Assembly: GCA_977017645.1 (NCBI GenBank)
Contig: OZ360227.1
Location: 55,924,001-55,988,000 of the forward strand
Length of the DNA: 64,000 bases
DNA from: Torpedo marmorata
Lineage: Eukaryota
Direction of reading: 5' to 3'
Below the pieces are notes generated by a model that worked only from the letters and a program-made list of their open reading frames with translations, did not search any database and was not told the DNA's origin. Below, in pieces: positions 829 to 48,865 of this stretch (its first letter is position 1; each line of letters begins with the position of its first letter). The position numbers and the translations under genes were made by a program.

Positions 829-1009
829 ACGTAGCAAAATCCCACAGGTAGCAATATACCAATCACCCTAATATGTTAATTAAAAGTGGGAGCAGTCTTC
901 TTTCCTGCCCAACACCCCCTCCCCCTACGTCCTTTTCTTCTTCATCCATCTGCGTTTAAAAGTCTAATCCAATAAACAGCAACCCATCAAGCTTCTTAGA
1001 ACTGCTTCC

Positions 1010-1634
1010 TCTACTTCCTCAGGAGTTTACGGAGGTTTGGTATGACACCAGAAACCCTGGCAAATTTATACAGAGGCGTGGTGGAAAGTGTGCTGACCGG
1101 CTGCATCACGGTCTGGTATGGAAACACCAATACCACTAAGCGTAAAGCCCTCCAAAAGGTAGTGGACACAGCCCAGAACATCACAGGCAAAACCCTCCCC
1201 ACTATTGAGAACATCTGCAGGGAACGCTGTCGTCGGAGAGCAACAGCAATCATCAAAGACCCACACCACCCAGCACACGCTCTGTTCTCACTGCTGCCAT
1301 CAGGAAAGAGGTATAGGTGCCACAAGACTCGCACCACCAGGTTCAGGAACAGCTGCTACCCCTCCACCATCAGACTCCTTAATGACAAAGTCAATCAGAG
1401 ACTCATTTAAGGACTCTTGTGCACTTTATTGATTTTCTTTTGTTCTCTCTGTATTGCACAATCAGTTTGTTTACTTTCATTAACCGTTGACAGTTCTTTG
1501 TTTGTTTACATGTTTACGCTGTGTACAGTTTATTTTTGTGTGGTAATTCTGCTGCCTCCGCAGGAAAAGGGAATCTCAGGGTTGTATGTGATGTCGTGTG
1601 TGTACTCTGACAATAAATCGGAAATCTGAAATCA
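1010..1634 (+). mobile_element. Rex1/Babar-type LINE, 3' fragment with tail
   Basis: ORF 1042..1410 (ESVLTGCITVWYG...KDPHHPAHALFSLLPSGKRYR...RFRNSCYP) is homologous to the C-terminus of 45885..46640; tail ends gacaataaa plus short repeats. Confidence 0.85.
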
Positions 1635-2800: not shown

Positions 2801-3160
2801 CTTCAAGGTTCCTTTTATTGTCACGTAATAATACATTAAAAATGTAACATACTTTTAACTATTGCTTGCCATAAGGCAGACAAAGAGTCGCCATTAGTAT
2901 TGCCCGGCGCCCCTTTCTGAGTGTCGGTGAATTTTCCTCCAGCGCTCCCGCAGCCTCTGCAGCCGCACAGACTCCTGTTCGATCCTTCGGCAACCCGAGC
3001 TCCAAGTCCAAACGTCCGATATGATCAGGAGGCCTTCAGCGCCCAAGGCCCTTCGGGAGCCCTTCTTGCCCTCAGCACCCTCTTGTATCCCAGGTCCAAG
3101 ACCTGGCTCCCATGAGCCAGTGTCCAGCAGCACATGCAGGTCCCCCAACCGCATTGCCTC
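2801..3160 (-). mobile_element. 5'-truncated copy of the CpG-rich non-autonomous retroposon
   Basis: Similar to the tail halves of 40176-41009 and 48866-49680. It interrupts a CR1 fragment that resumes near 3161. Confidence 0.75.
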
Positions 3161-9236: not shown

Positions 9237-9667
9237 CCAAGGTAAGCAATTTAATCGAGAAATATTTATTGGAGTTGAGCTTTTCTGGTTCCCTCAGTAA
9301 TGTTTCAGTAAATGATTTAGTACGCAGCCTTGTATTCTGCAGCTTGCTTGCAGGTTGGACCATGCCTTCCACTAAGAGTTTCAACTCTGCCGAGATTGAG
9401 CAAGTCCGTTTGGCTCTTCAAGCCTCTTCTATCACTCAGTGGCCGACAAGTGCCGCTCAAGTCCCTTACCAATGTCTATAGATGCATCATAGAAAGTATC
9501 CTGTCCGGATGCACCACAGCTTGGGACGAGAACTGCTCGCCCAAGACCGCAAGAAACTGTCGAGACTTGTGAAGGTAGCTTAGACCATCACACATACCAT
9601 CCTCCTCTCTATCGATTCTATCTTACTTCCCGCTGATTTGGAGAGATCCCACCCGGGCCATACTCTC

Positions 9668-9916
9668 TCTCATAGCACTAATAGCCTGAATACGACTGGG
9701 ATTGTCTGATCTCGGAAGCTAAGCAGGCACAGGACTGGTCAGTACCTGGAGGGGAGACCGCCAAGGAACACCAGGTGATGTAGGTTTCTGTGAGGGGTGC
9801 TGGACAAAGTAGCGACTCTCTTGTCTGCCTTACGGTAGACAACAATTAAAGAATTTCATGTATGTTACATTCTAAATGTAGTGTTACGTGACAATAATGG
9901 AACCTTTACCTTTACC
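9668..9916 (+). mobile_element. 5S rRNA-derived SINE (SINE3-type) with Rex-like tail
   Basis: 9668-9787 is colinear with vertebrate 5S rRNA (gtctgatctcggaagctaagcagg...gggagaccgcc...tgtagg), keeping A- and C-box-like motifs. It is followed by about 130 bp shared with the CpG-rich retroposon tail, ending gacaataa and (ccttta)n. Confidence 0.8.
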
Positions 9917-10349
9917 CAGTCCATTGGCACATGACCATGGAAACTAAAGATTTCAAGGATACTTTCTTTCCTGCTGTTGTCAGGCCCTTGAACGGACTTT
10001 TATTAGTAAAAGATGCCCCTTGCACTGTTTAACTGCACTTTTCTCTTTAACATTATACACTTCACCTTTGTTTTATTCTACCACTATCCTTTGCACCTTT
10101 CTCTTTATTTTGTACTATCTGCTGTATTATGTATCGGTTAACCTGCATGCAAAACAAAGTTTTTCACTGTATCTCAGTACACAAGACAATACACAAATCA
10201 ATTCAAGTGCTAACTCTACCCCTCTCTCCCAGTGTGATGTAAATGGGAAAGTTCTGTCGCAGGCCTCATAAAATAAGGTTGTTATTAATCTTTTACATTG
10301 AATATTTCCATCGCCCTTTGAACATGTTTTGACCTGATTCTCCCTCAAG

Positions 10350-12714: not shown

Positions 12715-13230
12715 AAAACCTTGATGAGCTTGCACTTGGAATACTGTGTGTAATTCTGGTCACTTCATTACAGGAAGGATGTGGAGGCTTTGGAAAGGGT
12801 TCAGAAAGGATGTGGCCTGGATTAGAGGGCATGAGTTATGGGGAGAGGTTGTTTTCTCTGGAGCGTTACAGGCTGAGGGGAGACCTGAGAGAAGTTTATT
12901 AAATTATGAAAGATTCAGGTAGGATAGACAGTCACATCTTTTTTCCAAGGGTAAAAAAATGTTACATATTAGAGGATGTGTGTTTAATATGAGAGGGGGA
13001 AAGTTTAAAGGATGTGTGTTTAATGTGAGAGGGGGAAAGTTTAAAGGATGTGTGTTTAATGTGAGAGGGGGAAAGTTTAAAGGATGTGTGAGGCAGGAAT
13101 TTTTAAATGAGAGAGTGCTGGGTGCCTGGGACGGACTGCCAGGGGTCGTGGTGGAAGCAGATATGATAATAATGCTGAGGAGGATTCCAGATGGATTCAT
13201 CGATTTGCAGGGAATACAGGGATATGTATC
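12715..13230 (+). mobile_element. Degenerate CR1 3' fragment with an internal 36-bp tandem triplication
   Basis: cacttggaatactgtgtg...ttacaggaaggatgtgg CR1 motif; unit aggatgtgtgtttaatgtgagagggggaaagtttaa occurs about 3 times at 12972-13090. Confidence 0.75.
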
Positions 13231-13663: not shown

Positions 13664-14680
13664 CCATATATGCTGGGGTATTAGACGACTCTTGTATAAG
13701 ATGACCCCCAGCATTTCCACTTAAAATGTAGGTTTTGAGCTATACTCGCTTTATAAGACTACCTCAAGTCTGACACTTACCGCTGACCAGTGGAGTGATG
13801 CTGTCACAATATTTTAAAAGCAAATTACCCAGTAAAGGTTTAAATTTTATTAGCATATTTTAAAATAAACTTGGCGTGGGGGAGCGCTGAGATTCACTGT
13901 TAAGGTTCACATTGTATACTTGGCGCGGGTAGCGCTGAGATTCACTGTTAAGGTTCACATTGTAAACTTGGCGTGGGGGAGCGCTGAGATTCACTGTTAA
14001 GGTTCACATTGTATACTTGGCGCGGGGAGCGCTGAGATTCACTGTTAAGGTTCACATTGTATACTTGGCGTGGGGGAGCGCTGAAATTCACTGTTAAGGT
14101 TCACATTGTAAACTTGGCGTGGGGTAGCGCTGAGATTCACTGTTAAGGTTCACATTGTAAACTTGGCGCGGGGGAGCGCTGAGATTCACTGTTAAGGTTC
14201 ACATTGTAAACTTGGCGCGGGGGAGCGCTGAGATTCACTGTTAAGGTTCACATTGTATACTTGGCGCGGGGTAGCGCTGAGATTCACTGTTAAGGTTCAC
14301 ATTGTATACTTGGCGTGGGGGAGCGCTGAGATTCACTGTTAAGGTTCACATTGTATACTTGGCGTGGGGGAGCGCTGAAATTCACTGTTAAGGTTCACAT
14401 TGTATACTTGCCGTGGGGGAGCGCTGAGATTCACTGTCAAGGTTCACATTGTATACTTGGCGTGGGGGAGCGCTGAGATTCACTGTCAAGGTTCACATTG
14501 TATACTTGGCGAGGGGGAGCGCTGAGATTCACTGTTAAGGTTCACATTGTAAACTTGGTGTGAGGGAGCGCTGAGACTTCGCTGTTAAGATTCGTATTTT
14601 ATACGGCATATCAGGTGACCCCTGGTTTTGGGGTGAAATTTTTAACGTTCAAGGATCGTCTTATATGCCGGCATATATGG
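13664..14680. mobile_element. Non-autonomous Tc1/mariner-pogo-type DNA transposon (MITE)
   Basis: TIRs ccatatatgctggggtattagacga / tcgtcttatatgccggcatatatgg, TA duplication at 13662-13663 and 14681-14682, no transposase ORF. Confidence 0.8.
13870..14603. repeat. 49-bp tandem array, 15 copies, inside the MITE
   Basis: Unit cttggcgtgggggagcgctgagattcactgttaaggttcacattgtata; the last copy is degenerate. Confidence 0.95.
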
Positions 14681-16875: not shown

Positions 16876-17294
16876 NNNNNNNNNNNNNNNNNNNNNNNNN
16901 NNNNNNNNNNNNNNNNNNNNNNNNNNNNNNNNNNNNNNNNNNNNNNNNNNNNNNNNNNNNNNNNNNNNNNNNNNNNNNNNNNNNNNNNNNNNNNNNNNNN
17001 NNNNNNNNNNNNNNNNNNNNNNNNNNNNNNNNNNNNNNNNNNNNNNNNNNNNNNNNNNNNNNNNNNNNNNNNNNNNNNNNNNNNNNNNNNNNNNNNNNNN
17101 NNNNNNNNNNNNNNNNNNNNNNNNNNNNNNNNNNNNNNNNNNNNNNNNNNNNNNNNNNNNNNNNNNNNNNNNNNNNNNNNNNNNNNNNNNNNNNNNNNNN
17201 NNNNNNNNNNNNNNNNNNNNNNNNNNNNNNNNNNNNNNNNNNNNNNNNNNNNNNNNNNNNNNNNNNNNNNNNNNNNNNNNNNNNNNNNNNNNNN
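16876..17294. other. Assembly gap or masked run (419 N)
   Basis: Run of N. Confidence 1.
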
Positions 17295-19477: not shown

Positions 19478-19678
19478 AGGAACTACAGATGCTGGAATCT
19501 AGAGCAAACAATGACGAACTGGAAGTCTCAGCAGGTCAGGCAGAATCCATGGAGAGAAATAAACTGCATTTCTGTTTGGGACCCTTTCTCCAGACAGTGT
19601 TGACAAAGGGTCCCAACTGGAAACGTTGACTGTCCATTTCTCTCCACGGATACTGAGTCTCTCCAGCCTCTTGTTGTT
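19478..19678. mobile_element. Palindromic mini-element made of two inverted Penelope terminal repeats
   Basis: tccatggagagaaat...gggacccttt mirrors aaagggtccc...atttctctccacgga. Confidence 0.6.
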
Positions 19679-20685: not shown

Positions 20686-21002
20686 NNNNNNNNNNNNNNN
20701 NNNNNNNNNNNNNNNNNNNNNNNNNNNNNNNNNNNNNNNNNNNNNNNNNNNNNNNNNNNNNNNNNNNNNNNNNNNNNNNNNNNNNNNNNNNNNNNNNNNN
20801 NNNNNNNNNNNNNNNNNNNNNNNNNNNNNNNNNNNNNNNNNNNNNNNNNNNNNNNNNNNNNNNNNNNNNNNNNNNNNNNNNNNNNNNNNNNNNNNNNNNN
20901 NNNNNNNNNNNNNNNNNNNNNNNNNNNNNNNNNNNNNNNNNNNNNNNNNNNNNNNNNNNNNNNNNNNNNNNNNNNNNNNNNNNNNNNNNNNNNNNNNNNN
21001 NN
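20686..21002. other. Assembly gap or masked run (317 N) in the fzd5 3' UTR region
   Basis: Run of N beginning 46 nt downstream of the fzd5 stop codon. Confidence 1.
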
Positions 21003-21048: not shown

Positions 21049-22758
21049 TCAGGCGTGCGTTAGCGCTAGTTGCTTGTGGTAGGTTGCCGAAGTCCTGTTA
21101 GTCAATGATGTACTGGCTTGACTGTACATAGACGCACCGGTCAGCTTCCTAGCACGGCAGCATCTGCTGGTGAACCGTCTCCACGATTCCAAAGTCTTCC
21201 CCGACCAAATCCAAACGCCCGACGTGATGCCGACAGCCAGGCACATGAAATACTTCAACATGAAGACGGCGTACTCGGGCCTGGGGTAGTCCTGGACCCC
21301 GGGACACGGGCAGCTGAGCGACGTCTCCCAGCTCTCCCTGGAGTGCTGTTCGTAGATGAAGCAGGCGACCACGATGGTGGCCGGGACCGTGTAGAGCACG
21401 GTGAAGATGCCGATCCGAATCATGAGCTTCTCCAGTTTGTCCGTCTTGGTTCCTCCTTGCTTGATCACGCTCCGTATCCTGAACAGGGAGACAAATCCAG
21501 CCAGGAGGAAGGTAGTCCCGGTGAACAGGTAGACCACCAGGGGTGCCAAGACGAATCCTCGGAGGTTGTCCAAGTTCTGGTTCCCCACGTAGCAGATGCC
21601 GGCCACCGGGTCGCCGTCCACGGAGCTCAGGGCCAGAGCGGCGATGGATTTGACGGTAGGGATCAGCCAAGCGGCCATGTGGAAATACTGGGAGTAACCC
21701 GCGATGGCCTCGTTGCCCCATTTCATGCCCGCGGCCAGGAACCAAGTCAAGGACAGGATGACCCACCAGATGGAGCTGGCCATTCCGAAGAAGTAGATGA
21801 GCAGGAAGACCACGGTGCACAGGGCGGGTCCCGTGGTCTCGTAGTGGATGTGGTTGTAGTCCTGGTTGCAAGCCACCTTGGCGTGCCCGGCTGCCAGCCG
21901 CACGATGTAACCCACGGACACGAAGAGATAGCAGGCGGACAGGAAGATGATCGGCCTCTCTGGGTACTTGAACCTCTCCATGTCGATCAAGAAAGTGGAG
22001 ACGGTCGTGAAAGTGGAAATGAAGCACAAGATAGACCACAGACCGATCCATAAAGTTGCAAAAGTCCTCTCGTCCTGGTTAAAGTACGGTTGGTAACAAG
22101 GGAAGGCGCAGTTGAGCAAGCGGCCGGTCCTGATCTTGTTGTAGAGCGGGTGACTCTCCTTGGAGATGGGGATCAGAGGGTCTTTGCAGTGACATTTTCC
22201 CGAGCAGTCAGGCTGGTGCCCTGGATAGGACCAAGAGGGTCGCAAGTTCTTCTTGGCCCCAGGACCTTTCGGGGCAACGGTGGGCTTTCGCAACGGAGGC
22301 GACGCCGTGGTCACCTCCGACCTGTTGTAGTCCATGCACAAGTTGTCCTGATCGCCGAGCACCGGGAGTTTGTCGCAGTTCATTCTCTCCGGCCAAGCAA
22401 AGCCATATTGTCTCATCAGAGGAGAGCAGCCGGACTTCGCTCTTTCGCAGACGGATCTGCAAGGCGGCAAGGGCTTCATGTAGTCCGCCAAGCAGATCGG
22501 GGTGTAAACGCTGCATAGGAAGAAGCGGAGGTCCGGGGAGCACTGGATCTCCACCAGAGGCCAGAACTGATGAACCTCCAGTCCCGCCTCGTCCTGGCTG
22601 TCGTGGTTGAACTGATTCGGCATGTACGTGTGGTTATAGCCGATGCCTTTGCACATGGGTACCGTGATCTCCTGGCAAACCATCGCCTTGGATGCGCAGA
22701 GAGCGACCCCCACTAACCCCACAAGACAGAAGCAGACTTCTTGCAAGCGGGGAGCCAT
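21049..22758 (-). CDS. fzd5: Frizzled-5 Wnt receptor, 569 aa, coding sequence uninterrupted
   Basis: Signal peptide, CRD (CQEITVPMCKGIGYN...EAGLEVHQFWPLVEIQCSPDLRFFLCS), seven TM segments, KTLESW Dishevelled motif. ASKA.VC, WPERM, RRFTSRCC and YHKQ favour FZD5 over FZD8. The first in-frame ATG is at 22758; the ORF-track start at 22776 is TTG. Confidence 0.93.
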   Translation of the reverse strand: MAPRLQEVCFCLVGLVGVALCASKAMVCQEITVPMCKGIGYNHTYMPNQFNHDSQDEAGLEVHQFWPLVEIQCSPDLRFFLCSVYTPICLADYMKPLPPCRSVCERAKSGCSPLMRQYGFAWPERMNCDKLPVLGDQDNLCMDYNRSEVTTASPPLRKPTVAPKGPGAKKNLRPSWSYPGHQPDCSGKCHCKDPLIPISKESHPLYNKIRTGRLLNCAFPCYQPYFNQDERTFATLWIGLWSILCFISTFTTVSTFLIDMERFKYPERPIIFLSACYLFVSVGYIVRLAAGHAKVACNQDYNHIHYETTGPALCTVVFLLIYFFGMASSIWWVILSLTWFLAAGMKWGNEAIAGYSQYFHMAAWLIPTVKSIAALALSSVDGDPVAGICYVGNQNLDNLRGFVLAPLVVYLFTGTTFLLAGFVSLFRIRSVIKQGGTKTDKLEKLMIRIGIFTVLYTVPATIVVACFIYEQHSRESWETSLSCPCPGVQDYPRPEYAVFMLKYFMCLAVGITSGVWIWSGKTLESWRRFTSRCCRARKLTGASMYSQASTSLTNRTSATYHKQLALTHA

Positions 22759-22978
22759 TACATCCAGTTTAAACAAGGATCCAGCCGGCCTCTGATGCCT
22801 GTCCTCGAACTCTGCCTCTGAGGTTTTACAGCCCTAATTCCTCCACTGCCGGCAAGGTTAAACACGGCCACACCTGACCACTCTCAAACATAACTGGTTG
22901 GATTTGGACAGAGGTGACTTCAAGTGAAATGTGCGCCGACATCCGAGGTGCCGTCTCGAAAGCAAACAAGGAAAATAT

Positions 22979-24060: not shown

Positions 24061-25960
24061 ATCTGTCACGTGCGTTTGGCACTCGTACAGGTTTTTTAAG
24101 TACGATGTCTGGAAACTTTGAAACTCTAAACCGGACATCAGTAGTCTGGTTTTTAAATAGAAGTCTGTGTCTTTTCCCTTCACCAACCTTGCAGGGCAAC
24201 TGGTTGTTCAAAGTTATTCTGGTCTGCAATGAATTTTTCATTATTAGCAAAGCAAACATCAGTTATCAGCGCATAAGTCATGGCTCTCTCAACAGATTCA
24301 GAGCAGCTATTTTTGGCAATCTTTGAACCTTTGAGTAAACTGCTCGTAAATTCTAGTTATCTTTTGTTTTAGATTAAAACATTCCGTCGGGGCAGATGGA
24401 GATGGTTCTGCTGTAATAAAGGAAAGCTCTTCCTTGGAACATTGAACCTCTCACACATGAAACACCTACATTTGCACCTTTAACAAAGTAAAGAAAAAAA
24501 ACGTTTGAATGAGTGACGTCTTTTGGGACGTCAGGGAGCAGTTTAAAACCGTGAAGTAATCTTGAACAATGAGTTTGTGTGGTCTTCAAGTAGGTGCCTA
24601 ATCGGAGAAGATCCACTTCCATTACGGGCACGGAACTCTCCTCCACTGTGTTAGACGCTGCCTGAGGAAGGCAGCCAAAGTCATCGGACCCCCCATCACC
24701 CTGGTCACAACTTTTCTCACTGCTCCCTTCAGGAAGTCCGATTTCCGGCACCTCAAGGTTCAATAATCGGTTTTAACCAACAGCTCTGAGGTTCCTGAAC
24801 CTCCCCGTACTATCGTAACCATCACCATAAACGACTCCACAGACCAGAACCATCAAAACCTGCACGCCTGAAACGTCTTGCACCGACTGCAACGTGTATA
24901 TTTATTTATATTTTTATATATTTATTATCTCTTCTCTTTTTCTGTCTTGGCATATTGTGCTAATTTAATTTGTAGTATTAAAATTATGTTCCTGTTTGTT
25001 TGTAGTAAGCACTAATTTCGGTGCATCTGCATATTGTTCATTTTATTTATTTCAGACTTATTGTCAGAGTACATACATGACACATCACATATAACCCTGA
25101 GATTCTTTTTCCCGCGGGCGAGGCAGAATTACCACTTATTGGTAGTGCATGTAAACAAATAAAGAAATGTGAACAATCTGCAATACAGAAAGAGAAAAAA
25201 TCAATAAAGTGCAAAAGTAAGAATCCTTAAATAAGTCCCAGATTGAGTTTGTTGTCGAGGAGTCTGATGGTGGAGGGGAGTAGTTGTTCTTGAACCTGGT
25301 GGTGCGAGTCTTGCCTCTTTCCTAATTGTACTAATGTGTCTGACAATAACCTCTCATCTCATCTCAGGATTTGACAACGGGCTGAAGGAGAGACTGGACA
25401 GTCTAGCACTTTCCATGGGACAGAGGAGGCTGAGGGATGACCCCCTCCCAATGAAACCAGGAGGGGCAGAGATAAGGTGAATGGTTACAGTCTTTTCCCC
25501 AGGGTAGGGGAGTTTAAAACCTCCCATAGGTTTAAGGTGAGGGGGAAAGTTTTAAAAGGGACCTGGGGGACAACTTTTTTTAAACACAGAGGTTGGAGGG
25601 AAAATGCAACGAGCTGCCAGAGGGAGTAGCAGAGGTGAGGACGATCACTACATTTAAAAGACATTTGAATAGATAAATCCAACTCATCAAACCACTGTAT
25701 CACGCACCATCACTGAACTCCTCACTTCCGGTCACCTCCCTGGCACGGCCTCCAACCTTATTGTTTCCCAACCCCGTACCACCCGTTTCTACCTCCTGCC
25801 CAAGATCCACAAACCCAATTGCCCCGGCAGACCCATCGTGTCCGCGTGCTCCTGCCCCACCGAAATGGTCTCCGCTTACCTCGACTCTGTTTTGTCCCCC
25901 CTGGTCCAGTCCCTCCCCACCTACATCCGGGACATTTCACATGCCCTCCATCACTTCAAC

Positions 25961-26831
25961 TGTTACAAAATCAAACCAGCAACAACAGAAGACGCAATGC
26001 AAAAGGGGTAAAATTGAAATTTATATTTATTAAAGACAATTAAACATATAATTTCACAACAATTAACCCCACTATAAACGTCTATAAACACTATTCTTAT
26101 CTAAAAGGTGTGTGTGTGTAAAGCCCAGACCATTACAGTCTGTGCCAAACCCTCATGTAAAAATGGAAAAACTTTCCCCAAAAACCCCAGGTCAGTCATA
26201 AAAACAAGTCAGTCAAAAAAATATAATACAGTCCACAAAAATTCACTCTCTAAGTTCAGGTTCCAAATTCAGCTCTGTGTGCTGGTAGAAGGACTTTTCA
26301 ATGAACGTTGGAGAGAGACAATGACTGTTTATGCTTACGAATACTTGGCTTGTTTTTCCTTCTCTGATGACTTTCCCTTTTCGTAGAGATTCACGAGGAT
26401 TGCGACTCCAAATCAGTATACCACTGATTGAGGCGTGTGCTTGGATCTCACAGCTGGTCTCGCTGATCTCACACCTGTTCTCCACAAAAGTTGCTTTAAC
26501 TCAGGATTTCTCTGAGACAGGAGGCCATGTGCTATTCTTCCAGCCTTTTCCTCTGGGATGCACTAGCCTGAATTTTGCTGTGTTCTCTAGCCTTTGCAAC
26601 TCCAAAACTGCCTGCTTTTTGCAGAGGTTTGCACCTGCCTTTTGCAAAAGTGCAACAAAGTATCTTTTCCACAGCCTGTCTCTCTCTGGTCTCCCTCTCT
26701 CTCTCTCTCTGGGTACACCAAGTCCTGGGCAAGTTAACTCTTTCAGTACCTGGTCCCAGTGTGTACTCCAAAAGACTTCATCCTTCCTGCTGACCATCCA
26801 CAGTCCAAATGGTCAGTCATGGTCCATAACA
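25961..26831 (-). mobile_element. Solo LTR, Gmr1-like family
   Basis: TGTTA...TAACA termini with 4-bp TSD CAAC (25957-25960 and 26832-26835). Confidence 0.95.
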
Positions 26832-28574
26832 CAACAACTTCCAGTTCCCTGAACTCGATCACCTCATGTTTACCATGGATATCCAATCCCTATACACCTC
26901 CATCCCCCATACTGAAGGCCTCAAAGCCCTTAGTTTCTTTCTGGACAATAGAACCAACCAGTCCCCCTCCACCACCACACTCCTCCAGCTGGCAGAACTT
27001 GTCCTCACCCTCAATAATTTATCCTTTGACTCATCCCACTTGCTCCAGGTTAAAGGGGTAGCCATGGTTACCTGCATGGGCCCCAGCTATGCCTGCCTTT
27101 TGTTGGCTACGTGGAGCAATCCATGCTACAAGCCTACACAGGCAAGGCCCCTCAACTCTTCCTCCGCTACATCGATGACTACTTTGGTGCTGCTTCATGT
27201 AACCATGCTCGTTGACTTCATCCACTTTGCTGCCAACTTCCACCCCGACCTCAAATTCACTTGGTCCATCTCTAGCAACACTCACCCTTTCCTCGATCTC
27301 TCTGTCTCCATTTCAGGAGACAACCTCTCGACAGACATCTTCTATAAACCCACCAACTGCCACAGCTACCTCGACTACACCTCTTCCCACCCTGTCCCCT
27401 GTAAGGATTCCATTCCATTCTCTCAATTCCTCCGTCATCGTCGCATCTGCACCCAGGATGAGGACTTCCATGCCAGATCATCAGAGATGTCCTCCTTCTT
27501 CAAACAACGTGGCTTTCCCTCTACCACCATCAACTCAGGCCTCACCCACATATCCTCCATTACCGCACATCTGCCCTGGCCCCCTCCATCCCCACGCGCA
27601 ACAAGGACAGGATTCCTCTTGTCCACCGGCCTCCGCATCCAAAACATCCTCCTCTGCCATTTCTGCTACCTACTACGTGATCCCACCATTAGACACATAT
27701 TCCCCTTGTTACAAATTCAAACCAGCAACGACAGAAGACGCAATGCAAAAGGGGTAAAATTGAAATTACTATTTATTAAAACAATTAAACATATAATTTC
27801 ACAACAATTAACCCCACTATAAACGTCTATAACACTATTCTTATCTAAAAGGTGTGTGTGTAAAGCCCAGACCATTACAGTCTGTGCCCAACCCTTATGT
27901 AAAAATGGAAAAACTTTCCCCAAAAACCCCAGGTCAGTCATAAAAAACAAGTCAGTCAAAAAAAAGAATAATACAGTCCACAAAATCCACTCTCTAAGTT
28001 CAGGCTTCAAATTCAGCTGTGTCTGGTAGAAGTACTTCTGAATGAACGTTGGAGAGAGACAATGACTGTTTATGCTTACAAATACTTGTTTTCTTCTCTG
28101 ATGACGTCCCCTTCTTGTATGTTCATAAGGATTGCAAGTTCCAGAATCACACAGCTAGTCTCGCTGATCTCACGCCTGTTCTCCACAGAAGTTGCTTTTT
28201 CTCAGAATTTCTGTCTGAGACAGGAGGCCATGTGCTCTTCTGCCGGTCTTTTCTCTGACTTCACACAAGCCTGGATCTGGCTGTGTCCTGTAGCATTTGC
28301 AACTCACAACTGACTGTCTGCTTTTCCTGCAGAGATCTGCACCTGCTTTTGCAAAAGTGAAACAAATGTATCTTGTCCAGTCTGTCTCTCTCTCTCTCTG
28401 GTCTCTCTCTGTCTGGGTACACCAAGAGTGCAACAATGTATCTTGTTTGGGTACACCAAGTAGGTGGGGAAGTTAACTCTTTCAGTACCTGGCCGGCCCC
28501 AGTGTCTACTCCAAAAGACTTCATCCTTCCTGCTGACCGTCCGCAGTCCAAATGGTCAGTCATGGTCCATAACA

Positions 28575-28586
28575 CCTCCCACCCGC
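28575..28586 (-). other. Polypurine tract
   Basis: GCGGGTGGGAGG abuts the 3' LTR (GAGGGTGGGAGG in the second copy at 62139-62150). Confidence 0.75.
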
Positions 28587-28706
28587 AAAGGAAATTTTGG
28601 TCTGCAAGAACAAAATTTAGGAAAGTAATTGAGGTGTCACAATATAAACAAAATCTACAATGTTCATCCACAAATACAAAATATGAACTATTTTCATTGA
28701 TAAAGT

Positions 28707-31700
28707 TTAACATCTAGAAAGACAATCAGCAATTGCATTATCTTTCCCTTTTATATGAGTGATTACCAAATTATATTCTTGTAAAATTAGACTCCAATTC
28801 AACAACCGTCAATGCTTATTTTTCATTTTACAAAGAAAAACCAATGGATTATGGTCAGTATACACTATGAGTGGTTTTTGAGCTGTACAGATATACACAT
28901 CAAAGTGTTGTAGAGCCAACACAAGAGCCAACAACTCTTTCTCTATAGTTGAATAATTCCTTTGATGATCATTGAACTTCTTCGAAAAGTAGGATACCGG
29001 ATGGTCAATGTCCTCTTCGTTCTTCTTCTGTAACAGCACCGCACCCACAGCTTCATCGCTCGCATCCACGGCTAAAGAAAACGACTGTTCTAAATTAGGT
29101 GACTTAAGCACAGGTTGGTGGCATAACATGGCTTTCAATTTGACAAATGCTTCCTGACAACCTGTTGACCATACAAATTTTTCTTTCTTTCTAAGCAAAT
29201 TTGTGAGAGGGAGCGCAAGATCAGCAAAGTTTTTACAGAACTTGCGGTAGTAGCCAATCATTCCCAGGAAACTCCTCAGAGTTTTCTTACCAGTTGGAAC
29301 AGGGAACTCGGAAATAGCGACAACCTTTGCCTCTACTGGCGCCAACTGCCCCTGTCCTACTACATAACCCAGATATATAACAGTAGCATGTCCAAACTCA
29401 CTTTTACTTAAATTAACTGTGAGTTTTGCTTTGGACAGTCGTTCGAACAGTTGTTTTAGCTCAAAGACATGCTCTTCCCAGGTCTCACTACTTACAATTA
29501 AATCATCAATGTAAGCACCTGTGTTTTTCAACCCTTGAATCACTGAACTAATCATTCTCTGAAATGTTCCTGGAGCATTCTTCATACCAAAAGGCATAAG
29601 ATTATACTCATACAGCCCAAAAGGTGTTACGAATGCAGAAATCTCCCTAGCCCTTTTTGTCAAAGGAACAGACCAGTATCCTTTTAATAAGTCAATTTTT
29701 GTAAGAAATTTAGCCTTCCCCACCTTGTCTATACAATCGTCTATTCTAGGAATAGGATAAGCATCTGTCTTTGTTACAGCATTTACTTTCCTATAATCAG
29801 TGCAAAACCTAACCGTTCCATCAGGCTTTGGCACTAGAACACAAGGGGAACTCCAATTGGAAGTAGACTTTCAAATAATATTGTTCTTTACCATGTAGTC
29901 AATTTCCTGATCTACCAGTTTGCACTTTTCCGCATTGATTCGATAGGGATGCTGATAAGCGATGGAAATTTTCTGAGGCACATCAGGAAATAAACTTATA
30001 AATTTTAAAAATAACTGACTCATCTCTTCCTTTTCTGAAGTTTTCAGATGAGCCAACTTTGTCTCCAGATTGCGCAAAATCATGGAATTTTCTAACCTCG
30101 GGCTTATCAATTTCTGTGTCCCATGACCCTCTCTGAAACTGGTTTCATCTATCTCCTCCTTACCCTGATCAATAACCAGTACCTCTGGTAAATTTTCAGT
30201 CCCTTTTTGTGGCACCTGTTCAAAATATGGTTTAATCATATTCACATGACAGATCTGTGTGTCTCGTCTGCGATTAGGTGTTTCTGTGACATAGGTGACA
30301 TCATTAATTTTTGACTTAACTCTATAGGGTCCTGAAAATCTAGCCCTAAGAGGATTTGAATGGATGGGAAACAGAACTAATACGTTCTCACCAGGTTTAA
30401 AAGTTCTCATTTTCGCCTTTCGATCATACCAAACCTTCATTCTCTGTTGAGTGGCCTTTAAATTCTCCTTTGCCATCTCACAAGCCCTATGTAATCGATC
30501 CTTAAATTTGGAAACATAATCTAACAGATTTAAATGCCCATCACGATTAATCCACTGTTCTTTTAATAATCTTAAAGGACCTCTCACCTCATGTCCGAAA
30601 ACTAACTCAAATGGACTAAAACCAAGTGATTCTTGGACAGACCCCCTCGCTGCAAATAACAACAAATGAACCCCCTCATCCCAATCCTTTTCCTTCTCAC
30701 AACAATAGGTTCTAATCATGGTTTTCAAAGTCGAATGGAACCTCTCCAAGGCCCCTTGACTTTCTGGATGGTACGCAGAGGATACAATCTGTTTAACTCC
30801 TAGTTCATCAACCACTTGTTGGAAAATGCCTGACATGAAATTACTGCCCTGATCTGATTGAATTTCCCTTGGCAAACCTACCAAGGTGAAAAGCTTTACC
30901 ATAGCCTTTACAATTTACTTTGCTTTAATGTTTCTCAGAGGAATGGCCTCTGGAAATCTGGTGGCTGCACACATAATTGTTAACAAATATTCATTCCCCG
31001 CTTTGGTTTTGGGCAATGGGCCAACACAGTCCACAATTACTCTCGAGAAAGGCTCACTGAAAGCAGGGATAGGTTGCAAGGATGCCACCGGGGGACCCTG
31101 ATTAGGTTTACCCACCACCTGACAAGTGTGACAGGCCTGGCAAAAGCTTACAACCTCCCTTCTCAAACTGGGCCAATAAAATTGTTTCATTATCTTCCTT
31201 ATAGTTTTCTTCACCCCAAGATGACAACCTAGGGGTGTACTATGAGCCAAAGTTATTATTTCATCCCTATATACTTTAGGGATTACAACCTGCTGCACTA
31301 CTGCCCATTCTTCATTGGCAGGAACATCACGTGGTCTCCACTTTCTCATCAACACCCCATCTTTTTCATAATACCCTACTGGCACCTTTTTAATCTCCTC
31401 TTCAGAGAGAACCTTATCCCTCAACTCAACAAGATCAGGATCGTCCTTTTGCCTTGCTATTAACTCCTGTCGGGATAGTGACAAATCTGTGCCTTTAGGT
31501 GTCTTATCAGTGGATGGGTGTAACATAGGAGATTGCTCAACCTTTTCCAGGTTTTCTTGATTATCACTTACTTTTTCTTTTACTAAGTTATTTTCCACTG
31601 CCTTCTCTATAGTGACATTTTTCTTAGACATGGCCCTGGTTATGGCACATGCCGGATAAATATCAGAGTCTTTCTCTGATTTATCAATGACTGGCTTAGT

Positions 31701-33338
31701 GGTCATTCACACTGCAGGAACTACTTTACCCTTGGCCAAGTCATTGCCTAACAACAGTGAGACTCCTTCTACGGGCAACTCTGATCTCACTCCTATTATA
31801 ACTGGTCCTTCCACCAAGTCTGAGTCCAATACTATTTTGTGCAAAGGAATGGACTCTACCTCACCACCAATTCCTTTAATTAAATTTATGTCACGAGTGT
31901 CAGTAGCTTCACAAAATTCCAAGACACTATCTAACACAAGTGACTGAGCAGCTCCAGTATCTCGCAAGATTTTCACTGGAACTTGTTTTGATCCTGCCTT
32001 AACTGAAACAAAACCATCAGTCACAAAAGGTTTAAATACATCTTTAACTTTGTCAGTAAATTTATCTCCTTCCTGGGTGTTATGCATCTTCTCACTCTGA
32101 ATACAAGCATTAGGTGTTGCATCCTTTTCTCTCTTCTTTTTCAACACTGGACAGCTTGCTAGCATATGACCAGCCTTCCTACAGTAGTGGCAAATGGGAC
32201 CCGAGTTGTTTTCCCTTTTCCACTTTCCTTCAACCCTTTCCTTAACACCAATTCCAAATTTACTTTCCACTTGCTTCTGATTATCCACCGTGACCTTTTG
32301 GAAAATTCTACCTGACGTCCACTTAGGCTTGTGGGTTAAAGCATATTCATCTGCTAACTTAGCTGAATTTTGCCAAGTTTTCACCTCCTTTTCATCTAAG
32401 TATGCCTTAATATCCTCAGGAACACACCTTTTTATCTCCTCGATTATTATCAATTCTCTCAATTGATTGTAATCATTGTTTACTTCCTTAGATGTGCACC
32501 ACCTGTCAAAACACACAACCTTTTCATAGGCAAACTCTGTATAAGATTGGGTTGCTGATCTTTTTAAATTTCTAAACTTCTGTCTATAAGCCTCTGGAAC
32601 TAACTCATAAGCCTGGAGTATAGCCTTTTTCACCGTTTCATAATCAGCAGCTTGCTCCGTGGTAAGAGTAGAATAATCTTGCTGAGCTTTTCCTTTTATT
32701 ACACTTTGCAACATAAGAGACCATTGGTCTTGTGGCCATTTTAATTTCACAGCCACCTTCTCAAAATGTTGGAAGTACTTATCTATTTCTGCCTCCTCAA
32801 ATGGAGGAACCAACCTAATTTCCCTACTAGCCAAAAACCCCTCAGCAGGATGACAAATTTGATCTTGGCGCTCTTCTTGTCTCCTCTCATTTTCCAACCT
32901 CATCTTTTCCAGCATATATATCCTATTTTTCTCCTCGTTCTCATATCTCTTTTGTTCTCTGTCTATCTGCATGTCTAATCTCTTTCATTCCAATTCCAAT
33001 TCTAATTTCTTTTGTTCCCTGTCTGCCTCCAATTCTAATTTCTTTTGTTCTCTGGCTGCCTCCAATTCCAATTTCTTTAATTCCAACTGTATGTTTTCAG
33101 AAGGTTTACCCTTGTGAAACTGCTCTAACACGCTCTCCTCCAATTTTTTTTCTTTTATATAGTATTTGACAATTTTTCTCCCAATCTCTGCCTTTTTCAT
33201 AAATGGTTTTACGGAAGCAATGCCCAACTCTGTTGCTATAGCCACTAACTGTTCCTTTTTCGCCTTTTTTAAAGTATCAGTTTCAGGTGATTCCAAAAAA
33301 TGTTCTACATCCGTTGTTGCTGGTTTTTTGTTACACAC
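28707..33338 (-). pseudogene. Gag-pol polyprotein, one 1544-codon frame with five in-frame stops
   Basis: SCAN-like capsid (YELVPEAYRQKFR), knuckle CHYCRKAGHMLASC, protease LRDTGA, integrase HHCC plus DCVGP/SDQG/ERFH plus GPY, RT (FCTDYRKVN, YIDD), RNase H (VDASD, YTDHNPL). Stops at 32985, 31707, 30915, 29871 and 28809 all lie in the same frame. Confidence 0.92.
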
Positions 33339-33418
33339 ACACTAGCTTTTAATTAGCTTTACAAAAGGAATGCCTTAAACCAAACTGGGATTCCTTCAAT
33401 TACCAAGATGGATTTTGA

Positions 33419-33442
33419 TTCAAATCCTAGGACGAGCCCCCA
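33419..33442 (-). other. Primer binding site for tRNA-Pro
   Basis: TGGGGGCTCGTCCtaGGATTTGAA starts 3 nt inside the 5' LTR boundary; the complement of the tRNA-Pro 3' end is TGGGGGCTCGTCCGGGATTTGAA. Confidence 0.9.
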
Positions 33443-34717
33443 ATTTGTTACAAATTCAAACCAGCAATGACAGAAGACGCAATGCAAAAGGGGTAAAATT
33501 GAAATTACTATTTATTAAAACAATTAAACATATAATTTCACAACAATATAACCATTATAAACGTCTATAACACTATTCTTATCTAAAAGGTGTGTGTGTG
33601 TGTGTGTCAAGCCCAGACCATTACAGTCTGTGCCCAAACCCTTTTGTAAAAATGGAAAAACTTTCCCCAAAAACCCCAGGTCAGTCATAAAAAACAAGTC
33701 AGTCAAAAAAAAGAATAATACAGTCCACAAAATCCACTCTCTAAGTTCAGGCTTCAAATTCAGCTGTGTCTGGTAGAAGTACTTCTGAATGAACGTTGGA
33801 GAGAGACAATGACTGTTTATGCTTACAAATACTTGTTTTCTTCTCTGATGACGTCCCCTTCTTGTATGTTCATAAGAATTGCAAGTTCCAGATCAGTATA
33901 CCACTGCTTTAGGCGTGTGCTTGAATCTCACAGCTAGTCTCGCTGATCTCACGCCTGTTCTCCACAGAAGTTGCTTTTTCTCAGAATTTCTGTCTGAGAC
34001 AGGAGGCCATGTGCTCTTCTGCCAGTCTTTTCTCTGACTGCACACAAGCCTGGATCTGGCTGTGTCCTGTAGCCTTTGCAACTCACAACTGACTGTCTGC
34101 TTCTTGCAGAGATCTGCACCTGCTTTTGCAAAAGTGAAACAAATGTATCTTGTCCAGTCTGTCTGTCTCTCTCTGGTCTCTCTCTGTCTGGGTACACCAA
34201 GAGTGCAACAATGTATCTTGTCTGGGTACACCAAGTAGGTGGGGAAGTTAACTCTTTCAGTACCTGGCCCCAGTGTATACTCCAAAAGACTTCATCCTTC
34301 CTGCTGACCGTCCGCATTCTAAATGGTCAGTCATGGTCCATAACACCCTCTCCGCCTTCCGCAGGGACCGCTCCCTCGTGACTCCCTTGTCCACTCCTCC
34401 CTCCCCACCAATCGTCCCCTTGCCACCTACCCCTGTGACCGCAGGAGATGCTCCACTTACGTCCATACTTCCTCAGCATCATTCGGGGCCCCAAACAGTC
34501 CTTCCAAGTGAAGCAACATTTCACTTGTGAATCTGCAGGGGTCATCTACTGCATCCGGTGCTCCCGCTGTGGTCTCCTCTACATCAGAGAGACTGGACGC
34601 AGACTGGGAGATCGCTTCGCTGAGCACCTCGGCTCTGTCCGCCACAATAGCGTGGATCTCCCAGTGTCCGCCATTTCAATTACCCATCCCATTCCCTTGC
34701 TGATACGTCTGTTCATG

Positions 34718-34766
34718 ACCGAATTTCATGACTTGTTCATGACAATAAATTCTGATTCTGATTCTG
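34718..34766 (+). mobile_element. 49-bp Rex1-type tail-only insertion
   Basis: accgaatttcatgacttgttcatgacaataaattctgattctgattctg matches the end of the LINE at 46750-46792; flanked by atg/atg. Confidence 0.85.
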
Positions 34767-35699
34767 ATGGTCTCATGTTCTGCCAGACTGAGACCACCCG
34801 TAAATTGGAGGAACAACACCTCATCTTCCGGCTGGGCACCGTCAAACCGGATGGCATTAATATCGACTTCTCTGGCTTTCGTTAAACCTCCCCCCCCCAC
34901 CCACTTCTTCGCTCGTCGCCTTCCCCAGCCTGTCTCTCCATTCCGTCTCCTTTCGCACAGACATGATAAATTCTACCTAGTCCCTTATCACATCCAATTA
35001 ACATCTTTTTTGGTCTGGATTCCTCCCCCATTGTTTGAATTCTGAGACTTTCTGAGATTTCCTGCTTCTGGCTCATTCTGCTTATTCCTTGAAGTAGGGC
35101 TCAGGCCCGAAATGTCAGCAGTATATCTTTGTCTCCTACAGACACTGAAAAACCGGCTGAGTTCCTCCAGCATTTCAGTGTGTTTTTACTACAATCACAG
35201 CATCTGCAGACTTTCGTGTTTCACTCTGGATAGATAAATAGTTCAGGAAGATCATAGAGTCGTAGACTTGCCCACACTGACCAAAATGTCTCATCTGCCT
35301 GTGTTTAGCCAATATTTCTCCCATCCTATCCATGTTTCTGTCCAATATTTTTTCTTAAACGCTCCAATAGTACCTGCCTCAACCACCTCCTCCGGCAGCC
35401 TATTGCATACACCTGTACATTGTACTGACGTGTATGACAAGAAACTCTCATACTTTTCACACAAGAGAACACATTCAATTCACAAGCCTGACTGCTGGAT
35501 ATCTGTCACGTAAGTCCTCTATTTATGTACAGTATGTATTATTTAATATAAATACTGTATGATAGGAGAGACTGTGATGTCTCTAGCTTAAGCCACTTAC
35601 CATCCAATAAAGCTCTACATAACACAAGGAACAGCATCTCATCTTTAATCCAACCATTCACAAACTTCCCACCTGATCATGTGACTGAACAACTTCAAA

Positions 35700-35915
35700 C
35701 CAAGCAAACAACATCCTGCCGGAGAAACTCAGCAGGTCAGGCAGCTTCCATGGGTGGAAATGGTCAGTCAATGCTTCAGGTCGGGACCCAACCTCGATAA
35801 AGAGTCCCGACCCCAAAACGTTGACTGACCATTCCTACCCACGATGCTGCCCGGCCCACTGAGTCTCTCCAGCAGCTCATCGTTCACTCTGGATTCCAGT
35901 GTCTGCAGCTTTTGT
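35700..35915. mobile_element. Palindromic mini-element of inverted Penelope terminal repeats
   Basis: Arms 35721-35789 and 35801-35870 are imperfect reverse complements around an 11-nt centre. Confidence 0.7.
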
Positions 35916-38123: not shown

Positions 38124-38898
38124 AAGATTCAAATTCAAAATTATTTTTATTGTCATGTAATAATACAGAAAATGTAATATTACATGAAATTTCCTTTTGC
38201 CTGCCGTAAGGCAAATAAAGCGTCTCCATTAGCATTGCCCAGCGCCCATTACAGTAAGCGAAAGAAAAGTTAAAGAAATTCCCTCCACAGACACTGAGTG
38301 TCCATGGATTCGCCTCCAGCGCTCTCACAGTCTCTCAGGCAACCCGAGATCCAGGTCCAAACATCCGATACGATCAGGAAACATTCAGGAGCCCTTCTTG
38401 CCCTCAGCACCCTCTGGAATCCTGGTTCCGATACCTGGTTCCCATGAGCAGTCTCCAGTAGCCTGCAGCCTGTGTGAGTTCTTCGACCACAAGTTGCCTG
38501 CCGCCCGAAGCCTGTGTGGGTCCTTCAGCCGCTGAGCCCCTCGCTGGTCCGCTGCCGTGGTCACCGTTCTGTAGGCTTTGTATCCTATGCTTCTCCTTCT
38601 CAACAGGGGGTGTTCTAACTGTTTCCTGGTTCGCTGCTCTCCTGGAGTCTGCAACCCCTCATGGTGCGCTGCCCAGCACAGGTGCTGCCATCTTGGGCGC
38701 AGACACCATGGTTGCAGGATTTTTAAAAAGTACTTTCGGTTCCTTTAACAGGCTGCTTAAAGCCTGTTTGGAGCCGTCGCCATCAGGACCAGGTAGTAGG
38801 ACCCTGTGGAGCAACGCTGTGTCTCCGCTCCCTGCTCTCCTGGGTCCACACCAGTGGCAGCGCTCTCGTTACAGCAGCTCTGGCAGCCCCGCCATTTT
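38124..38898 (-). mobile_element. CpG-rich non-autonomous retroposon, older copy
   Basis: Colinear with 40176-41009; starts AAAATGGCG and ends catgacaataaa plus short repeats. Confidence 0.8.
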
Positions 38899-39021
38899 AA
38901 AAAAAATGTTATACTTTACAATCTACTGTAATTGTCCTTTAATTTTAGTTACTAAATTATCAGAGATGATAGGGTTCGCACCTTCATCAGTTTAAATATT
39001 GGGAAGAGCAAATGGACAATC

Positions 39022-39870: not shown

Positions 39871-40175
39871 CTGGCATCTGATTTAAGCAGGCACAACTTC
39901 AGAACTGAAGGCCGTTCACTTAGAACAGAAATGCGTCGGAATTTTTTCAGCCAGAGGGCGGTGAATCTGTGGAATTTGTTGCCACAGGCAGTTGTGGAGG
40001 CCAGGTCATTGGGTGTATTTAAGGCAGAGATTGATTGGTTCTTGATTAGTCAGGGCATCAGAGGTTCTGGGGAGAAGGCCGGGCAGTGGGACTGAGTGGG
40101 AAAATGGATCAGCTCATGATTAAATAGTGGGGCAGATTCGATGGGCTGAATAGCCTATTTCTGCTCCTATGTCTT

Positions 40176-41009
40176 CAAGATACAAGATTCAATTTATTGT
40201 CATGCAATAAAACAGTGTCATATTACACGAAATTCCTTTTGCCTGCTATAAGGCAGACAGATTCGCCATCGGCAGAAATTGCCTGAAGCGCCTCTTACAG
40301 ACAGAGAAAGAGAAGCAAAAGAGAGTCCCCCCAGAGTCACCCAGTGTCCATAGATTCGCCTCCGCAACCACACAGAGTCCAGTCCAAACCATCGGCAACC
40401 CGCGCTCCAGATCCGAACCTCCGACACGGTCAGGAACCCTTCAGCGCCTTCGGCACCCCCTCGCATCCCGGTTCCGATACCTGGTACCCCTTCAGCCAGT
40501 TTGAGCCAGTCTCCAGCAGTCCACAGCCCGATGTGAGTCTCCCGACAGCAGTCTCCAGCAGCCCACAGCCTCCACGGGTTCCTCGCCTCGAGTCGCCAGC
40601 AGCCCGCCGCACGCATTGGTCTTTCAGCCGCAGAGCCCCCTCACCGGTCCCCCCCGCTGTGGTCACCGTCCTGTGGGTCGTCTCCTCTGCTTCTCCTTCT
40701 CAGACGGGGGATGGTCTCCCCGTTTTCTGGTGCCCTGCGCCAGTCCTCCGCTCCCCTGGAGTCTGCAACCCTTCGTGGCTGCTGCCGATCAGAGGCGCTG
40801 CCATCTTGGGTGCAGACCCCGCGGTCGCGGGATTTTAAATAAAACTACCGTCGGCTCCTTTAACGGGCCGTTCAAAGCCCGTGCGGAGCTGACAGCAGTC
40901 GACTGGGCAGTTGGACCCCGCGGGAGCGCTGTATCTCCGCTCCTCGCTCCCCGCGGGTCCGCACCAGCAGCAGCGCTGCCGTTACAGTGGCTCCGACAGC
41001 ACCGCCATC
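40176..41009 (-). mobile_element. CpG-rich ~830-bp non-autonomous retroposon, apparently full length
   Basis: Starts GATGGCG, has internal CAAGATGGC, no recognisable protein domain, Rex-like stem-loop tail and short aatcttg-type terminal repeats. Confidence 0.8.
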
Positions 41010-42009
41010 ATTTATGGTCTTATAGTCTAATTCTAGATGTGCTTCTAACCCCACATATTCTTTGACATCAAAACAATGCCCATATCCTTACCTCCATTCA
41101 TCTGCTGCTGAAACCCTCAATCACCATTGTATCCATCAGAAATGACCCTTCCAGTTTGAAGAATTTTATCCCAACTTGCACAAATTATCCCATAAGCATG
41201 TTGACTAACATTGGTTCCAGGTCTGGGAATACTCATTTTAAATTCTCATCTTTGCATTCAAATTCTTGTGTGTTGCTTCTGCCTCCCTTGTGACTTCATT
41301 TAGCCCAACAATTCATCAAGATCTCAGGATTGCCACTGCCCATTTACACTAATCCTGCATTGGTCATCATTTTGTATTCTCCCCACATTCATATTGACTC
41401 CCCCAGATTCTACCGCTCACCTACAGACTAGGGCCAATTTAAAGTGGTCAATTAACCTACTCGTTTTACTCATTTCATTTATAAAAGACCCAAGGTTACA
41501 GGATACCGTTCATCAATCTCACAGCCTGCTGGAAGAAGCGATTTCCCAGCCTGGCAGTCCTGATTTTGATGCTCCTGATGCTAGTCGGTCAAAGATACTG
41601 TGTGCTGGATGGTAGGGATCCTGAATAATTCTTTGAGCCCTTCTCTTCCATGCAGGATTGGTTGGTGCAGAGGAGTTGATTATGGGTTGGTGGTTGGAAG
41701 TGGATATCCTCGCTAATTTCACTTTCTGCATACTTCATGAGAACATAAGCCTGCTCCGCCATTCAACATGATCACGGCTGATCTGGCCGTGGACTCAGCT
41801 CCACCTACCCGCCTCTTACCCATCACCCTTAATTCCCTGACTGTGGAAAAATCTACTTGTCTGTATCTTAAATACAGTTAATGAGGCAGCCACTACCACT
41901 TCCTTGGGAAGAGAATTCCACAGATTCACCACTCTGGGAGAAGCAGTACCTCCTCATCTCCATCCTAAATCTACACCACTGAATCTTTTTCAATTAAAAA
42001 AAAGGTGTA

Positions 42010-42959: not shown

Positions 42960-43547
42960 TGTACCTGGGAGGTGACCTATCGTGGACACTCCACATCTCC
43001 TCGCTTGTCAGGAAGGAGCAACAGTGACTGCACTTCCTGAGAAGACTGAAGCGGACAAGGCTACCGGCCACCATTATGTCAACCTTCTATAGGAGCTCTA
43101 TCGAGAGTGTCCTGGCCGGCTACATCACAGTGTGGTACGGTTGCTGCAGAGAAATGGATCGGAGGTCAATCCACAGGAAAATAAAAGCGACGGAGAGGAT
43201 CACTGGGGTCTCCCTTCTCCCCAACCTCCCCCATTGATGTGATTTACTGAGATCATTGTCTAAAGAGGGCTCGCAAAATCAGGGAGGACCCCTACAACCC
43301 CACACACAGAATCTTCCAGCTACTCCCGTCGGGAAAAAAATACAGAGTTATGAGAGCCAGAACCACCAGGCTGAGAAACAGCTTCTTCCCACGGGCAGTG
43401 AGACTGCTGAATGACTGCTAAAATAACTCTCTGTGACTTTACTATTTATTAATAATATATATATGTACTGAATATGAATATGTCTGTATGTGTGTTTGCA
43501 CTGTTCTGCACCGAGGACTGGAGAAGACAGTTTTGTCGAGTTGACAA
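42960..43547 (+). mobile_element. Degenerate Rex1-type 3' fragment; tail completed after the solo LTR (44444-44465)
   Basis: FYRSSIESVLAGYITVWYG...FQLLPSGK...RLRNSFFP; the tail aataaacttgaacttgaa follows the LTR. Confidence 0.75.
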
Positions 43548-44443: not shown

Positions 44444-44574
44444 ACAAATAAACTTGAACTTGAAGTGTCTTGATTCAGTGCTGGTACTTTTGACTTGCTT
44501 CTCATTTGTCTAAATCAAGAGGTACATGGAGAAGAGCAAGGAGCAAGATAAATAACTTTACAGTGCTTCCATCA

Positions 44575-48838: not shown

Positions 48839-48865
48839 CTAAGATATAAACGTAACTGAAAATAG

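Follow-up and report, generated by a model that had tools for sequence, protein, structure and literature searches.

SINEs with a head derived from 5S rRNA (SINE3) are rare, accounting for 2.3% of SINEBase in its first release (PMC10946416), and the LINE partners named for them in the literature searched are of the CR1/L2, RTE and I types. Closest in build to the element described here are CoeSINE5 of the coelacanth, SINE-1_Pmo of the python and Ped-1 of the springhare, which are likewise short and consist of a 5S head and a LINE-derived 3' part ending in a short repeat; such elements are thought to have arisen when a non-autonomous LINE acquired a head from a small RNA (PMC5786205, PMC3747384). 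Their tails, however, are bipartite and derived from RTE/BovB, whereas the present element combines an elasmobranch 5S head with a tail of Rex1-type architecture. Other vertebrate 5S-headed SINEs (zebrafish SINE3-1, AmnSINE1 and OS-SINE1) depend on CR1-group LINEs (PMC3747384, PMC7245038). These SINE3s, which are of the DeuSINE type, possess a central Deu domain of ~330 bp (PMC4824008) and CR1/L2/RSg-1 tails, in contrast to the ~240 nt of the element, which has no body and whose tail starts right after 5S position 120, leaving no room for a Deu domain. That Rex1 can drive a SINE is indicated by SINE2-5_NV with Rex1-24_NV of a sea anemone, the only SINE/Rex1 pair in the parts of the PMC3747384 table available to us, but this SINE has a tRNA head and a cnidarian host, as against a 5S head and a ray host. 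SINEs described from chondrichthyans, the host group of the element, namely HE1, SacSINE1 and SINE2-1_CM/CmiSINE (PMC3747384, PMC5499810, PMC4824008), have tRNA heads, CR1-type tails (PMC3747384) and V or Deu domains. Finally, 5S/LINE-1 and U6/LINE-1 chimeric retrocopies also carry a small RNA 5' of a LINE 3' end within one insertion; both kinds usually do not spread further, and those with 5S are mostly antisense and truncated (PMC13174262), whereas the element is in sense orientation and nearly complete. A 5S-headed SINE with a Rex1 tail, or one from rays, was not found in full-text searches of the open literature, and an entry in Repbase, Dfam or SINEBase may exist. What is new about the element is the way in which known modules are combined, and no new mechanism is involved. 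Rex1 itself makes up 6.6-9.1% of two ray genomes, rays being among the vertebrates with the highest Rex1 loads (PMC13343379), and its end is described as a conserved 3' UTR followed by an oligonucleotide of variable length (PMC6274825).

The element was located on the plus strand at 9668-9913 of a 64,000-nt stretch of Torpedo marmorata DNA (GCA_977017645.1, contig OZ360227.1, positions 55,924,001 to 55,988,000), the whole of which is referred to as the window. The window consists of vertebrate DNA rich in repeats and contains a single intact gene, frizzled-5, which occupies one open frame at 21052-22833 (-) and whose best protein matches were from Narcine bancroftii (92%), Leucoraja erinacea (90%) and Hypanus sabinus (89%), with sharks at 83-86%; this order places the host among the rays, possibly the electric rays. 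The 5S-headed element lies ~11 kb downstream of frizzled-5, in a region of many nested repeats. Two assembly gaps (16876-17294 and 20686-21002, 736 N in total) were present, the second just 3' of frizzled-5. A Gypsy-type LTR retrotransposon was found at 27706-34346 (coding strand -), with LTRs 92.7% identical, stops interrupting the coding region, a SCAN domain in gag and an integrase ahead of RT/RNase H, a domain order which we take to be Gmr1-like. A second, partial copy lies at 61241-64000, and related LTRs at 217-647, 25957-26835, 43548-44443, 55753-56618 and 59656-60525. Minisatellites were located at 13869-14604 (49 bp x 15) and 12969-13090 (36 bp x 3.4), and self-inverted sequences of 115-160 bp at 19541-19655 and 35716-35875, with an arm identity of 72-74%, could be MITE-like relics. 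A frame at 47509-48117 (-), in which zf-RVT was matched weakly and below cut-off (E 0.001), is possibly the remnant of an L1/Tx1-type LINE.

The only Rfam match above gathering across the 64 kb was to 5S rRNA (RF00001), at 9668-9786 (+), scoring 42.8 bits (gathering score 38; E 1.6e-5), and no second 5S-like sequence was found in the window by blastn, nhmmer or a pattern search allowing three mismatches. The head was assigned to 9673-9787 (+), its 3' end falling on 5S position 120 and its 5' edge between 9668 and 9679. Taking the limits of the type-1 Pol III internal promoter to be 5S positions 50-64 (box A), 67-72 (intermediate element, IE) and 80-97 (box C), we placed box A at 9717-9731 (+; 14/15 against stingray class II 5S), the IE at 9734-9739 (+; 5/6 against the same reference) and box C at 9747-9764 (+; 15/18, with changes at 84, 96 and 97), all by eye. 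Over positions 44-120 the head matched this reference, the class II rows of supplement 1 of PMC3123226, at 66 of 77 positions with no indel, again by eye. The 5S-like head with internal promoter boxes named in the preliminary description was therefore upheld, both by the Rfam score and by the three recognisable boxes. The head also carries C61 and A64, and as A64 occurs in elasmobranch rows only among the rows of supplement 3 of PMC3123226, it derives from the 5S of the host lineage itself.

Upstream of position 44 the head was more changed than the 11 differences in 77 of the 3' part, with 11 differences in 39 positions when published primers and a 5S string served as reference (Fisher p 0.08) and 13 in 37 with the primers only (p 0.015), both counted by eye. 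The first 14 positions matched a published elasmobranch primer (PMC3123226) at only seven, by eye, and the first 5-11 bases (9668-9678) fitted 5S no better than the interrupted Rex1 LINE in the empty-site test described below; being readable as host LINE, they may not belong to the head, which may thus lack a few 5' bases, and the earlier wording of a full-length head was not retained. The stretch 9679-9787 was predicted to fold as a 5S-like two-arm structure (z -2.29) in which helix I is lost, and a T-run scan found no run of four T (T4) as a terminator after the head, and the head therefore does not represent a functional 5S gene. At 33-34 and at 96-97 two neighbouring bases have both changed, and by eye these double changes generate new Watson-Crick complementarity, which is no more than suggestive; several head changes disrupt 5S helices, like plain decay. 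An excess of transversions, considered as a sign of evolution within a SINE lineage, was not found: of 16 changes 9 were transversions, compared with 50% in the window (p 0.40), and the spectrum was ordinary. The changes at 33-34, 73, 96-97 and 102, seen in one copy, are candidate diagnostic positions; by eye, that at 73 is common to the element and CoeSINE5, and that at 96 to the element and SINE-1_Pmo (PMC5786205).

Alignments, folds and the T-run scan placed the tail shared with a CpG-rich retroposon family at 9788-9897 (+), closing with TGACAATAA at 9889-9897. It is followed at 9898-9913 (+) by a short terminal tandem repeat, (ACCTTT)2 at 9902-9913, in place of poly(A), and by host LINE from 9914, so that the tail including its two-copy 6-nt terminal repeat covers 9788-9913. 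The stretch 9785/9793-9906 aligned to 2805-2914 reversed over 88 of 119 columns (blastn E 9e-16), and the scores of the tail against the 3' ends of the four CpG-rich copies in the window (112, 92, 61 and 51) all exceeded the maxima over 500 shuffles (39, 43, 36 and 32, respectively). This bore out the sharing of a tail with the CpG-rich retroposon, with the length corrected from ~130 bp to ~125 nt. The ungapped identity of the tail to the copies was only 61-75% (best 74.5%), and thus none of the four is its direct donor. Head and tail meet without a spacer, the first family-like base following directly on 5S position 120 and in the sense orientation, and the junction lies just beyond a T4-bearing pyrimidine tract of the CpG-rich family. 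T4 runs were present in all four CpG-rich copies, in three of them within the shared stretch, and in the element there was none; the first T run downstream of the copy lies at 9998. Hairpins were predicted in the tail at 9792-9820, 9821-9842 and 9856-9891, two of them predicted to be conserved and the third coming from single-sequence folds. The terminal hairpin is predicted to pair with a probability of 0.98, equalled in 2 of 200 shuffles, and it did not rise above shuffles in two of the four CpG-rich copies; two-sided changes were seen in 1 of the 23 predicted tail pairs.

Near full-length copies of the CpG-rich, non-coding family were aligned at 38128-38900 (-) and 40174-41010 (-), a copy without ~30 nt of its 5' end at 48860-49680 (+), and a 5'-truncated copy, whose tail is the nearest to that of the element, at 2802-3131 (-). 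The last is followed directly after its 3' end by a minisatellite (2059-2800, 37 bp x 20, 98% matches). The family measures ~800 bp, its copies are 66-85% alike, and its CpG observed/expected ratio is 0.56-0.86 compared with 0.45 for the window. Readings of the family as protein-coding or fused to an RT were rejected, since Pfam searches of its long frames returned one DUF1455 match only, below cut-off (E 0.008), and a search of 5,975 longer candidates with one 196-aa frame yielded no match, although the latter is weak evidence. A reading as decayed 5S elements was rejected as well (p 0.05-0.38 per copy, inconsistent registers, joint p 0.05); in the two copies that were scanned, Rfam detected no 5S even at an E threshold of 10, and no tRNA or 5S head was found in the family. 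Target-site duplications of at least 6 bp were absent from the three long copies. Two of these three start with ATGGCG, which also opens several ray Rex1 consensus rows among the matches listed from the PMC13343379 supplement. Six motifs of the family gave six scattered matches in the Rex1/CR1 part of that supplement, none of them in a ray row, over the first 400 bases of each row.

On account of the ATGGCG start and the Rex1-type 3' end, the family looks like a non-autonomous Rex1-type derivative, as far as can be inferred. It resembles the bipartite non-autonomous LINEs RTE-N, RIME and Vingi-N in being short and non-coding, with a LINE-like 5' start and 3' end; as such elements were by 2018 reported for RTE, Ingi, Vingi and R2 only, according to the portions of PMC5786205 available, the family would be a Rex1-type candidate among them, and it is possibly as interesting as the 5S-headed element. 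The preliminary description had derived the latter by head swapping with the CpG-rich family. This part of the proposal was dropped, as the family has no tRNA or 5S head to exchange and two of its three long copies begin like ray Rex1 (PMC13343379). More likely, 5S RNA acquired a LINE-type 3' end, and this step is the starting point of the mechanism considered below.

The largest Rex1-type LINE fragment of the window, at 44494-46793 (+), contains RVT_1 and ALKBH8_N (Pfam), a domain pair which we take to be associated with Rex1, and ends in a 3' hairpin, TGACAATAA and a short repeat; it serves as a reference for tail architecture and not as a direct partner of the element. By eye, the translation of 44494-45852 resembles the rows HypSab_Rex1-13 and LeuEri_Rex1-11 among the matches listed from PMC13343379, and DUF1891 was not mentioned in the ten papers listed by a full-text literature search. 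From the domain pair and this likeness, the reference LINEs of the window probably belong to the Rex1 clade. The motif TGACAATAA occurred 12 times against 0.74 expected; after eight RT C-termini of the RT-plus-ALKBH8_N type it was exact in three cases, variant in three and absent in two, and at 8 of 13 sites, the element included, it closes a hairpin more often than 95% of shuffles. CpG-rich copies and Rex1-type LINEs carry similar short repeats after it. Against eight 3' ends outside the CpG-rich family, including coding Rex1-type LINEs, the tail gave no significant alignment (scores 20-31, shuffle maxima 33-45), and hence no partner LINE was identified. The label of a Rex1-type tail was accordingly kept in an architectural sense, for the predicted 3' hairpin, TGACAATAA and the short repeat that are held in common, and not for any alignment to the other 3' ends (0/8).

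A younger Rex1-type LINE family comprises the copies at 44494-46793 (+), which starts directly after the LTR at 43548-44443, and 54197-54917 (-), which are 94% alike, together with a tail-only insertion of ~50 bp at 34718-34768 (+). Distinct Rex1-type 3' ends were found at 1009-1630 (+), 25049-25313 (-), 43257-43545 (+), 58540-59013 (-) and 61058 (-); these five have unrelated UTRs with the same or a variant end motif, which is partly hairpin-closing. A common end motif on unrelated Rex1-type UTRs suggests a recognition signal conserved across Rex1 lineages. To our knowledge, the RNA recognition signal of Rex1 has been little studied.

The element interrupts an older Rex1-type LINE remnant. 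The left part of this remnant, the end of the RT-coding ORF, lies at 9440-9672 (+) and was recognised by tblastn with the protein of 45798-46637 (aa 168-189, E 4.6e-6) and by DNA alignment, in which it scored 62-97 against shuffle maxima of 43-50 with four of six reference copies. The right part, at 9914-10205 (+), comprises the last codons, the 3' UTR and a decayed end motif at ~10184, and was recognised by tblastn (aa 258-278, E 0.088), by a motif scan and by an empty-site test. In this test, excision of 9672-9913 raised the score to the Rex1 copy at 46793 from 97 to 141 and that to the copy at 54197 from 86 to 126, while the maxima obtained with a shuffled right flank were 121 and 105, respectively, and the flanks met almost gap-free. 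Five of the seven reference fragments stayed below the shuffle maximum, and the two that passed represent one 94%-identical family. As excision restores the collinearity of the host, chance juxtaposition of head and tail is unlikely and the two most likely arrived together as one unit. No target-site duplication of at least 5 bp, a feature of insertions made by target-primed reverse transcription (TPRT), was found at this old copy; TPRT may leave none (PMC4494074).

The element is therefore a real, well-delimited retroposed unit of 5S plus LINE tail in a ray. SINEBase (PMC3531059) describes SINEs as interspersed elements of less than 1 kb, and a SINE3 head as at least 60% identical to 5S over at least 60 nt; the element measures ~240 nt and lies singly inside a LINE remnant, its head matches 5S at 66 of 77 positions by eye, and it contains a putative promoter of box A, IE and box C with no internal T4. 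We assign a probability of roughly 0.6 to the reading that it is an old copy of a ray SINE3 family, one that would rely on Pol III for transcription and on a Rex1-type RT for its spread. Mobilisation of a SINE3 by Rex1-type machinery, as proposed at the outset, thus partly stood: insertion as a unit, the shared tail and the Rex1-like 3' end are in its favour, the window holds a single copy, and the head swapping was given up.

Under the SINE3 reading, a Rex1 RT would have acted on the RNA of Rex1 or of a non-autonomous Rex1 derivative and, after ~125 nt, would have switched template to the 3' end of 5S rRNA (or the two RNAs would have been ligated), giving the founder; such a route has been proposed for other SINE heads (PMC4824008, PMC7245038). 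TFIIIA, TFIIIC and Pol III would then fire from boxes A, IE and C and, the 5S terminator having been lost, read through to a downstream T run. The protein of a partner Rex1 would recognise the tail hairpins, TGACAATAA and the short repeat in trans, leading to TPRT, and the copy at 9668-9913 would have landed in the dead Rex1 fragment and then decayed by roughly 15-20%.

The main competitor, which we consider unlikely, though by far less so than the others, is a one-off chimera, in which the RT switched to cellular 5S rRNA (or an RNA was ligated) during one CpG-rich or Rex1 insertion and the product never spread. Such events are known for L1, with 27 involving 5S in the human lineage (PMC13174262), and a single copy in the window, a seamless junction at the mature 3' end of 5S, an elasmobranch-type head near to real 5S genes and its ordinary mutation spectrum are all compatible with one. 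The window also holds four elements that share the tail without a 5S head, as would be expected if chimeras form a minority (by the argument of PMC4494074). However, known 5S/L1 chimeras of the human lineage are mostly antisense and truncated (PMC13174262), and the sense, near-complete head of the element thus argues for a SINE3. So does the better preservation of the promoter region than of the upstream head, a skew that is borderline here and would not be expected of a chimera, and that has been described for SINE3 heads (PMC10886601). The element is moreover free of T4, its junction falling just past the T4 tract of the family, which points in the same direction, albeit weakly, as one of the four family copies also has no T4 in its tail. 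Finally, one-off events are rare per window: 0.0006 chimeras would be expected per 64 kb at the human rate of 27, compared with 0.1 copies of a family assumed to number 5,000, figures inferred with assumed genome sizes. The SINE3 reading is weakened, in turn, by the single copy, the missing partner LINE, the lack of a target-site duplication (common to it and the three long CpG-rich copies), the ordinary mutation spectrum, the head changes that disrupt 5S helices and the change at 84 in box C, as well as by the two-sided changes in just 1 of 23 tail pairs and the terminal hairpin at the level of shuffles in two family copies.

Searches for further copies bear on the same choice. A second head-tail junction was not found in the 64-kb window, and exact patterns of the junction and the derived head had no match in bacterial and archaeal genomes, which contain no ray DNA and are uninformative in this respect. 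A 55-aa antisense frame across the junction returned no candidate in a word-indexed protein search. In a full HMMER scan it gave 11 matches, each made up of 2-6 matched stretches, a pattern to be expected from 5S genes in tandem arrays; ten of them begin no earlier than query residue 19 and so cover the head only, and one reaches residue 10.

Far less probable is a history of two events, in which the Rex1 remnant first received a 5'-truncated CpG-rich copy, at whose exact 5' end a 5S pseudogene or another 5S SINE was later inserted or recombined. Nested repeats are dense in the region, 5'-truncated family copies exist (2802-3131) and the unit is not delimited by a target-site duplication, but head and tail are on the same strand with no spacer, A tail or repeat between them, the host flanks join directly once both parts are excised, and with one 5S-like sequence per 64 kb, arrival at exactly this point would be improbable. 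That the head is simply a genuine or orphan 5S rRNA gene beside a repeat can be dismissed almost entirely, for although it passes the Rfam gathering score and has a 5S-like predicted fold, it has lost helix I and the oligo-T terminator (no T4), differs from stingray 5S at 11 of 77 positions, stands in no tandem array and lies within the remnant of a LINE ORF.

The SINE3 reading can be extended to a more specific one, in which the element belongs to a ray SINE3 family not yet described, the first SINE with a 5S head to be driven by Rex1, and formed by joining 5S RNA to the 3' end of a non-autonomous Rex1 derivative of ~800 bp that is likewise undescribed; this we put forward tentatively, as a possibility rather than as our expectation. 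If it is true, Rex1 would join the few LINE clades that have given rise to SINEs as well as to internally deleted derivatives, and its recognition signal would be defined as a stretch of ~125 nt with three hairpins. A SINE and a non-coding derivative that keep one tail of ~125 nt would delimit this signal and provide a ready reporter for mobilisation in trans. Copies of the family would furthermore serve as presence/absence markers in the phylogeny of rays and account for stray 5S annotations in their genomes.
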